Below the pieces are notes generated by a model. That model saw only the letters and a program-made list of their open reading frames with translations. It ran no database searches and was not told the DNA's origin. From a virus (taxonomy: Duplodnaviria; Caudoviricetes): a DNA stretch of 43,622 nucleotides. Below are positions 1-43,622 of the stretch, in pieces; the first letter of the stretch is position 1, and each line of letters begins with the position of its first letter. The DNA is taken from positions 1 to 43,622 of IMG/VR virus record IMGVR_UViG_3300032129_000019; one strand, 5' to 3'. The position numbers were made by a program, and so were the translations under genes.

Positions 1-85
1 TAGTACATCATATAAATCTTAATCATGCAGACAACAGGATTGAAAATCTACGAATAATGAGTAGGAGTGAACATGGAAAATTACA
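1..85 (+). repeat. Terminal overlap, identical to 43440-43524 (left flank of the insertion site)
   Basis: Exact match TAGTACATCA...GGAAAATTACA at both ends; consistent with a circular assembly. Confidence 0.95.
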
Positions 86-149
86 ATATTTGTGCGGAAA
101 GCCCACTCTCTTTAGGTGTGGGATGGATAGCACTACTAAAATATACCAT

Positions 150-178
150 TAGACATGGTTATTTTAGTACGATATAAT
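150..178 (+). promoter_or_regulatory. sigma70/SigA promoter inside the mini-element
   Basis: TAGACA(150-155)-17 bp-TATAAT(173-178); the -35 lies in the loop of inverted repeat TACTAAAATATACCA/TGGTTATTTTAGTA. Confidence 0.75.
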
Positions 179-184
179 ATACTT

Positions 185-365
185 AAGTTTTGAAACGAGC
201 CATATACTATCGTTAATGTGTCAATTGTGATGCTTGATAGTGAAATTCTTGAAGAAAATAATTAGTTTTTATATGTTGTAATTTATAGTTTTCATTATAA
301 ATGAGAGTATAAAAGAAGTTATTTAGTATTCAAGAACCCCATTCATTTATGTGTGGGAGTTTCAG
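185..365 (+). ncRNA. Putative TnpB-type omega-RNA scaffold, copy 1 (guide would be 366 onward)
   Basis: Several stems covary with the copy at 42136-42315; ends at the IS605-type right end; 5' TTGAAAC(190-196) pairs with 3' GTTTCAG(359-365). Confidence 0.65.
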
Positions 366-544
366 ATGGAGGATTTAAAGGTGGAAGTAAAGGCGTACAT
401 AGAATTTCAACAAGTTTTAGTGTAGACAATGAAATTGTTAAAAAATTCAATGAAGTATGCAAAATAGAATCAGTAAATAAAAGTGCATTAATTGAGAAAC
501 TGATAGTCGCTTATATTGAAACGGATAAAAAAGATAAAAAATAA
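366..544 (+). pseudogene. 3' part (ribbon-helix-helix domain) of the HNH-RHH gene, cut off by the insertion in this allele
   Basis: In-frame continuation of ORF 43340.. in the empty allele; RISTSFSVDNEIVKKFNEVCK...NKSALIEKLIVAYI has an RHH pattern; 366-464 equals 43524-43622. Confidence 0.75.
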
Positions 545-42089: not shown

Positions 42090-42135
42090 ACAATACAATT
42101 ACAAAATATCAAGCATGGGAATATAAAAAAATAAT

Positions 42136-42315
42136 AAGGTTTTGATATGAGCCTTTAAACTATCGTTAATTTATCCATTGGGATAATTGGTAGTAAAAGT
42201 CTTAGAGAAGTTATTTAGTTCTTATATGTTGTAATTTATAGTTTTTATATAAATGAGAGTATAGGAGAAGATAATGTATTTAAGAACCCCATGCCTTTAG
42301 GCGTGGGAGTATCGG
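42136..42315 (+). ncRNA. Putative omega-RNA scaffold, copy 2 / IS605-type right end without a left end
   Basis: About 80% identical by eye to 185-365 with compensatory changes; GAAC-CCCATGCC-TTTA-GGCGTGGG-AGTA-TCGG. Confidence 0.7.
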
Positions 42316-43185: not shown

Positions 43186-43350
43186 ATGGCAGAGTTTTTA
43201 TTAAGAGGTATGTCTGATGCAAGTAAATACGATTTAAAAATAATAGCCAAGAAGCATAAACGGTCTTTAAATAGTGAAATACTTATGGTATTAGAAAAAT
43301 ATTTAGAATCAACGTTGAAAGAAAATAAGGAGGTTGTAAATGAGGGATAA
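43186..43350 (+). CDS. Arc-like ribbon-helix-helix repressor (54 aa)
   Basis: FLLRGM..AKKHKRSLNSEI; promoter TTGATT-18-TATAAT containing palindrome TGATATCA. Confidence 0.75.
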   Translation: MAEFLLRGMSDASKYDLKIIAKKHKRSLNSEILMVLEKYLESTLKENKEVVNEG

Positions 43351-43622
43351 ACATTGTGCTTTTAGTAACAGTTCTTATATTTCTTATTATAGATATTTAA
43401 TGGAAGATAAAATTGGCAGAAAGTTAGGCATTGACGAAGTAGTACATCATATAAATCTTAATCATGCAGACAACAGGATTGAAAATCTACGAATAATGAG
43501 TAGGAGTGAACATGGAAAATTACATGGAGGATTTAAAGGTGGAAGTAAAGGCGTACATAGAATTTCAACAAGTTTTAGTGTAGACAATGAAATTGTTAAA
43601 AAATTCAATGAAGTATGCAAAA
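43340..43622 (+). CDS. HNH endonuclease-RHH fusion, intact allele (continues into 465-544 on the circle)
   Basis: AAGGAGG RBS; YRYLMEDKIGRKL..EVVHHINLNHADNRIENL..SEHGKLH. Confidence 0.8.
   Translation, partial: MRDKHCAFSNSSYISYYRYLMEDKIGRKLGIDEVVHHINLNHADNRIENLRIMSRSEHGKLHGGFKGGSKGVHRISTSFSVDNEIVKKFNEVCK

Follow-up and report, generated by a model that had tools for sequence, protein, structure and literature searches.

The question raised by this locus is how an element without a gene of its own came to interrupt a phage gene, and what the RNA that it appears to encode would do there. The window analysed is the whole contig, phage-like, 43,622 bp in length. Its ends overlap, one insertion apart: positions 1–84 equal 43440–43523, and 366–464 equal 43524–43622. 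Comparison of the filled and the empty allele on this one contig delimits a gene-less IS605-family element (PATE), 281 bp in length, at 85–365 on the plus strand, inserted without scar or target duplication 3' of TTAC. The limits carry a one-base ambiguity, an A being common to both sides. Five plasmid records of Clostridium tagluense hold the element at 97.8–99.3% identity. The sequence-only reading had given a span of 150–385; the promoter and RNA cargo that it named do lie inside the element, which is itself larger. No transposase or nuclease gene is present in the 281 bp, which hold short overlapping ORFs only. The preferred reading, at a probability of about 0.6, is a gene-less mini-transposon with both ends and a TnpB omega-RNA scaffold behind the promoter-like site, which likely relies on TnpA and TnpB supplied by full elements of a Clostridium host. 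An IStron (group I intron fused to an IS) was considered and rejected: no Rfam intron match is found, and the element is too short.

Sub-terminal hairpins are formed at both ends of 85–365 in DNA folds, and terminal inverted repeats are absent. The left end (98–122, plus strand) consists of the DNA guide AAAG (98–101) and a hairpin (102–122), and a near-identical left end is carried by the tnpA+tnpB element L005. The right end (334–365, plus strand) consists of GAAC, a hairpin and the terminal TCAG; TCAG terminates 18 of 19 aligned rows, and the flanks diverge directly after it. Both ends are shared with tnpA+tnpB elements. TTAC (81–84, plus strand) lies outside the element, as the TnpA target and the inferred transposon-adjacent motif (TAM) of TnpB. 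The empty allele reads TTAC-ATGG, and TTAC stands 16–19 nt upstream of AAAG in 46 of 48 left-end pattern hits, the two misses being one hit that is not a left end and one that reads TTAT. These counts support TTAC as the insertion motif of the element family. The positions of AAAG ahead of the left hairpin and of GAAC ahead of the right one agree with the rule by which IS608 guides pair with TTAC and TCAG. DNA guides of such a type exist in IS605 elements (PMC10055086).

Clostridium tagluense A121 carries full and partial copies at unrelated sites, and C. tagluense copies are 96–99% identical; near-identical copies at unrelated sites imply movement of the element. Mobility would be in trans, via TnpA. 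PATEs of Haloquadratum walsbyi likewise lack terminal inverted repeats, have near-terminal palindromes, produce no target duplication and are too short for a transposase (PMC3119063). Compared with archaeal PATEs as described there and in PMC4615843, the window element is bacterial and holds a full omega scaffold rather than fused ends only.

The insertion-free allele (43340–43622, plus strand) is an HNH_3 gene running into a ribbon-helix-helix-like tail, with an open frame over the junction (PF13392, E 4e-9; RHH_3 weak, below cut-off). The predicted target at 43520–43539, on the same contig as the filled copy, reads TTAC followed by ATGGAGGATTTAAAGG. In the filled allele the frame stops at 152, and the insertion breaks the HNH_3/RHH-like gene. 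A GTG in the right-end hairpin opens a frame, 353–544, that continues into the RHH-like part of the interrupted gene, with no evident ribosome-binding site. A metagenome junction scan for an independent empty allele returned only L080, which agrees with the window in length and coordinates and is not independent of it; G006 shows the filled right junction only, its sequence beginning at the element; and among 80 HNH relatives in viral contigs no close empty allele is found. The empty allele is either an excision product or an uninvaded sibling, seen in this one assembly.

The RNA scaffold (186–365, plus strand) comprises a 5' hairpin, a stem at 205–242, a central arm at 247–335, the right-end hairpin at 338–357 and a pseudoknot, 192–195/360–363. 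Folding of 185–365 gives z −4.27 on the plus strand, a value reached by 0 of 200 shuffles; the minus strand gives z −3.25, and the preference for the plus strand noticed earlier is thus only mild on folding alone. Of the proposed stems, ACTATCG/TGATAGT, GTGTCA/TGATGC, TTTTATAT/GTATAAAA, ATTTATA/TATAAAT and the right-end hairpin are all recovered when the single sequence is folded, and all appear in the consensus of the alignment as well. TTGAAAC/GTTTCAG, taken by the sequence-only reading as a closing pair, has a real core but forms no nested closing stem. It is a loop-to-tail pseudoknot of the kind typical for TnpB omega-RNAs: GAAA (192–195), in the loop of the 5' hairpin (186–189/198–201), pairs with TTTC (360–363), and the pairing is kept in 19 of 19 rows. 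The variants are GAAA/TTTC, GATA/TATC, GACA/TGTC and GAAT/ATTC; pseudoknot pair 16–199 has the composition AU:9, UA:6, CG:4.

The structure alignment holds 19 rows picked from 27 distinct full scaffolds. RNAalifold gives 48 pairs, 24 with two-sided changes; with the pseudoknot there are 52 pairs, 97.5% of cells paired and 26 of 52 pairs with two-sided changes. No shuffle of 500 reaches any of the measures and slid controls are 44–48% paired, in controls that favour the structure, which was derived from the same 19 rows, its pseudoknot first spotted by eye. Rfam gives no meaningful match to the element, its three hits (E 2.7–4.9) all lying outside. In the omega-RNA of ISDra2, positions −5 to −3 pair with an upstream GAA, −3C pairing with G (PMC10097598). 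The ISDra2 TnpB omega-RNA resembles the present scaffold in that it ends at the right end, takes the flank as guide and holds a pseudoknot in the same register.

In a profile search run over every fetched locus, 90 distinct scaffold hits were obtained; 12 lack upstream DNA and the other 78 were classified, as a set biased by locus fetching in which one insertion may repeat across strains. In 56 of the 78 the scaffold starts 10–33 nt after the C-terminal tail motif of an intact or broken tnpB gene, as expected of the omega-RNA that the sequence-only reading had proposed. The remainder are 17 promoter mini-elements, two with a left end and no promoter, and three others. A position after tnpA alone, which would have counted against the sequence-only reading, is found in 0 of 78. 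These positions support the homology of the RNA with the non-coding DNA at the 3' side of tnpB elements. The interior of the element is 74% identical to DNA directly after the tnpB stop of ISCbt1, in Clostridium phage c-st (AP008983). Like the window element, ISCbt1 follows TTAC, ends in TCAG and has its scaffold directly after the stop; it differs in being a full-length tnpA+tnpB element with another left-end spacer and the pseudoknot letters GACA/TGTC. No tnpB-linked scaffold closer than 86% to the window copy is found among 22 compared.

Upstream of the scaffold lies a sigma-70-type promoter-like site (150–178, plus strand), TAGACA-17-TATAAT, an 11/12 consensus match, as first noticed from the letters. 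The expected +1, at about 185–186, falls at the first stem of the RNA of about 180 nt, and the promoter probably drives an RNA from there. Sites of 11/12 or better number only four on the plus strand of the window. Among 20,000 shuffles of 126–185, 10 give a promoter site at the same distance from the scaffold, a chance of about 5e-4. Promoter-bearing copies occur in seven genomes (G001, G003, G008, G009, G011, G013, G026). In diverged copies the hexamers are kept and the 17-nt spacing is constant; the −35 box reads TAGACA, TAGATA, TAAACA or AAGACA, and the −10 box TATAAT (TAAAAT in L219), a conservation partly selected because the copy-anchoring pattern included the −10. The first stem begins 7–8 nt past the −10 in promoter-bearing copies, L219 excepted. 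Full tnpB elements have other spacers behind the same left end. RNA runs X15, X16, X17 and X19 yield short contigs of relatives only, without start, end or strand; two of these cross the promoter and may therefore be DNA or read-through. Halobacterium PATE RNA VNG_R0052 is expressed (PMC4615843). A long palindrome (134–169) straddles the −35 box (DNA fold −9.1 kcal/mol); symmetric changes are seen in diverged copies (L167, L219), and it may serve as an operator or form a hairpin in the DNA.

The site could also count as a portable promoter, outward transcription into downstream genes being its use. No terminator-like site is present in 1–900, and in G011 and G013 genes lie downstream of truncated copies (L164, L166) that keep the promoter and 5' part. 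Such a use leaves a complete covarying scaffold unexplained, the window insertion breaks a gene, and copies sit in varied contexts; this explanation is highly unlikely. Truncated copies L164, L166, L179, L217 and L218, which retain the left end, the promoter and some of the scaffold, occupy apparently orthologous sites in G008, G011 and G013, and were possibly retained as gene promoters.

An alternative of another kind is a passenger relic, spread by TnpA on the two ends alone, with promoter and scaffold as leftovers of a deleted parent, unused by TnpB. Elements of about 50 bp consisting of ends only, left and right hairpins fused, occur after TTAC or TTAT (L069, L077), and the interior may therefore be dispensable; ends-only forms of 50 bp are common to this family and the archaeal PATEs (PMC3119063, PMC4615843). 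Decayed copies also occur: promoterless (L009), truncated (L051, L164, L166, L179) and pseudoknot-broken (L050, L167). Compensation within the lineage is not significant as aligned: the window copy and that of G026, the most distant mini-element, differ by three two-sided changes (null mean 1.07) and 11 broken pairs (null mean 14.4). In folding stability the G026 copy does not surpass its shuffles (z −0.16), though its changed terminal hairpin still forms in its own fold. Against a relic, a search of 30 genomes of the genus and 382 scored genomes of the family (19 further genomes unscored) finds no tnpB-bearing parent with the same promoter. The promoter adjoins the scaffold exactly, and both persist down to about 75–78% identity. 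Other deletion mini-elements (L035, L045, L271) retain tnpB codons and show no such promoter. A relic is thus possible but unlikely, and a mini-transposon with a working omega-RNA scaffold is retained as the preferred reading.

Deletion has taken several forms in related elements. In L009/L056 (G003:C124) the scaffold is identical to that of the window, minus 36 bp, promoter included, lost between AATATAC repeats. In other clostridia L035, L045, L271 and L272 are independent deletion mini-elements with left end and scaffold, mostly with a few tnpB codons, without the same promoter.

Candidate partner proteins are encoded in genomes that carry the mini-element. In C. tagluense A121 the intact-looking element L005 holds, after TTAC, a near-identical left end, a Y1 tnpA (PF01797, E 2e-37), a TnpB-like ORF of 486 aa, the scaffold and TCAG; L199 in the same strain represents a second TnpB subfamily, with 52–54% protein identity and a short-armed scaffold. 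The L005 ORF matches NF040570 at E 2e-23 and 83 bits, below the NCBIfam cut-off of 100 (partner proteins score 83 and 96 bits). Partner proteins have no match in Pfam; the CxxC motif is absent in 11 of 11 checked; a single-TnpB search of the PDB gives no match, and a profile search only LaTranC, at E 0.33. Atlas neighbours of the partner ORF are named TnpB or transposase at 0.96–0.99. D225, E333 and D433 are invariant in 13 of 13 aligned partner proteins, and from motif context are assigned to RuvC I–III. TnpB genes with all three acidic residues are present in genomes carrying the mini-element. From this evidence the L005- and L199-type ORFs are here called divergent TnpB. G008 holds a truncated copy, yet has no match to the L005-type TnpB. 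The ORFs of L005, L199, L215, L224 and others form a clade of TnpB of about 490 aa without Pfam hits or CxxC, the scaffold lying wholly downstream of the stop; relatives are found on Clostridium, Bacillus and other plasmids. ISDra2 (PMC10097598) differs from the window type in these respects, the partner here being about 490 aa in length without CxxC and the scaffold wholly downstream of the tnpB stop, and in having TTGAT, not TTAC.

No TnpB is encoded next to either scaffold in the phage. The second (42095–42315, plus strand) is a remnant with the last tnpB codons (KISSMGI*) and an omega-RNA, ending TCGG, with no left end or promoter seen. It is 96–97% identical to the 3' end of L005-type tnpB elements in G001, G002, G003 and G018, and 80% to the first copy. 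With up to three mismatches allowed, its guide finds no target in the window. The identity of 96–97% suggests that the phage has passed through hosts with L005-type elements. Prophage similarity gives short patches of 68–86% only, and a Clostridium host is inferred from the elements alone.

The predicted guide (366–381, plus strand) is the first 16 nt of the phage flank, a length assumed from ISDra2 (PMC10097598). A match of the guide, behind TTAC, to the empty HNH allele had been put forward from the sequence; it is present, and is the sole TTAC-preceded match in the window. It is no separate evidence, because any scarless IS605 insertion yields such a match. In IS605 elements TnpA excises scarlessly, the empty joint is cut by TnpB with a guide taken from the flank, and the element is regained by recombination (PMC10055086). 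By analogy, host TnpA would insert and excise the present element; its RNA would start at about 185–186 and run past TCAG into the flank; host TnpB would bind it and use about 16 nt of flank as guide, cutting any TTAC-ATGGAGG... joint. The filled allele would be spared, because there the guide sequence follows TCAG instead of TTAC. Repair templated by a filled copy, or loss of the copy that was cut, would preserve the element. Most often the target would be the joint that its own excision leaves while the phage replicates; co-infecting sibling phages would be cut by the same chemistry, provided that both alleles were in one cell.

The same RNA could be a decoy which binds TnpB (or TnpA) and chiefly sequesters it, so that cutting or transposition is damped and the element is not driven. 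The promoter is strong and of constitutive type, copies per genome are many, and competition of PATE RNAs for TnpA is a speculation of PMC4615843. Since the scaffold has an intact pseudoknot and stops exactly where the right end does, bound TnpB would be programmed by the flank by default; a decoy is judged improbable.

Trans activity of stand-alone omega-RNAs was reportedly first demonstrated with IscB. Stand-alone omega-RNAs of OMEGA systems work in trans, as summarised in PMC10691335; they resemble the window element as mobile effector-less guide modules in genomes with an effector, trans activity being only predicted for the latter. PATEs often encode omega-RNAs on which TnpB must act in trans (Meers et al., PMC10055086). 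The gene-less PATE-like elements of Geobacillus stearothermophilus described there are likewise IS605 derivatives with intact ends, and an omega-RNA-only element is excised by TnpA in trans. They belong with another TnpB clade; the window element has TTAC/TCAG ends, a phage location and both alleles in one assembly. A dedicated promoter and arm exchange, proposed for the window lineage, are not among the features given for the G. stearothermophilus elements in the available text of PMC10055086. TnpB gene drive of IS200/IS605 among plasmids is documented in PMC11870625. The likeness, predicted for the window, is that copies of a multicopy replicon are cut if they lack the element; TnpB acts in cis on the plasmid there, and the window case would be in trans, on a phage. 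A literature search covering few subscription papers returned nothing on the element family, on drive in trans among phages or on exchange of arms, and no characterisation of this TnpB clade with its predicted TTAC TAM. Omega-RNA-only PATEs acting in trans and plasmid TnpB drive are already published (PMC10055086, PMC11870625), and no new class of system is opened by the window element. It offers a clean test of the published proposal that TnpB, acting in trans, maintains omega-RNA-only PATEs: the filled and the empty allele both occur naturally, the scaffold has a promoter-like site of its own and a structure defined by covariation, and two subfamilies are candidate partners.

The central arm of the scaffold occurs in two versions on one chassis. 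A G009 mini-element shares the promoter with the window copy and is 95% identical to it in the 5' domain and 94% at the right end. Its arm of 68 nt is 77–86% identical to short-arm scaffolds and 63% to the window arm; the window arm of 92 nt is 72–87% identical to the six L005-type scaffolds compared and 60–62% to short-arm ones. Both TnpB subfamilies are co-resident in G001 and G009. A single recombinational exchange of the arm is the simplest reading of these identities; that it switches the TnpB partner is speculation. An RNA-only selfish element, homing among phage genomes through borrowed host TnpB and changing partner by swap of the central arm, is a doubtful proposition. Such a swap in nature would indicate which part of the RNA determines TnpB specificity. 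The short-arm version of the mini-element chassis is represented in G009 by L163, L186, L213 and L214. L219 (G009:C1:1953600–1954500, minus strand) has a degenerate left end, the same promoter, about 85 extra bases and then a short-arm scaffold, and is possibly an older or extended form.
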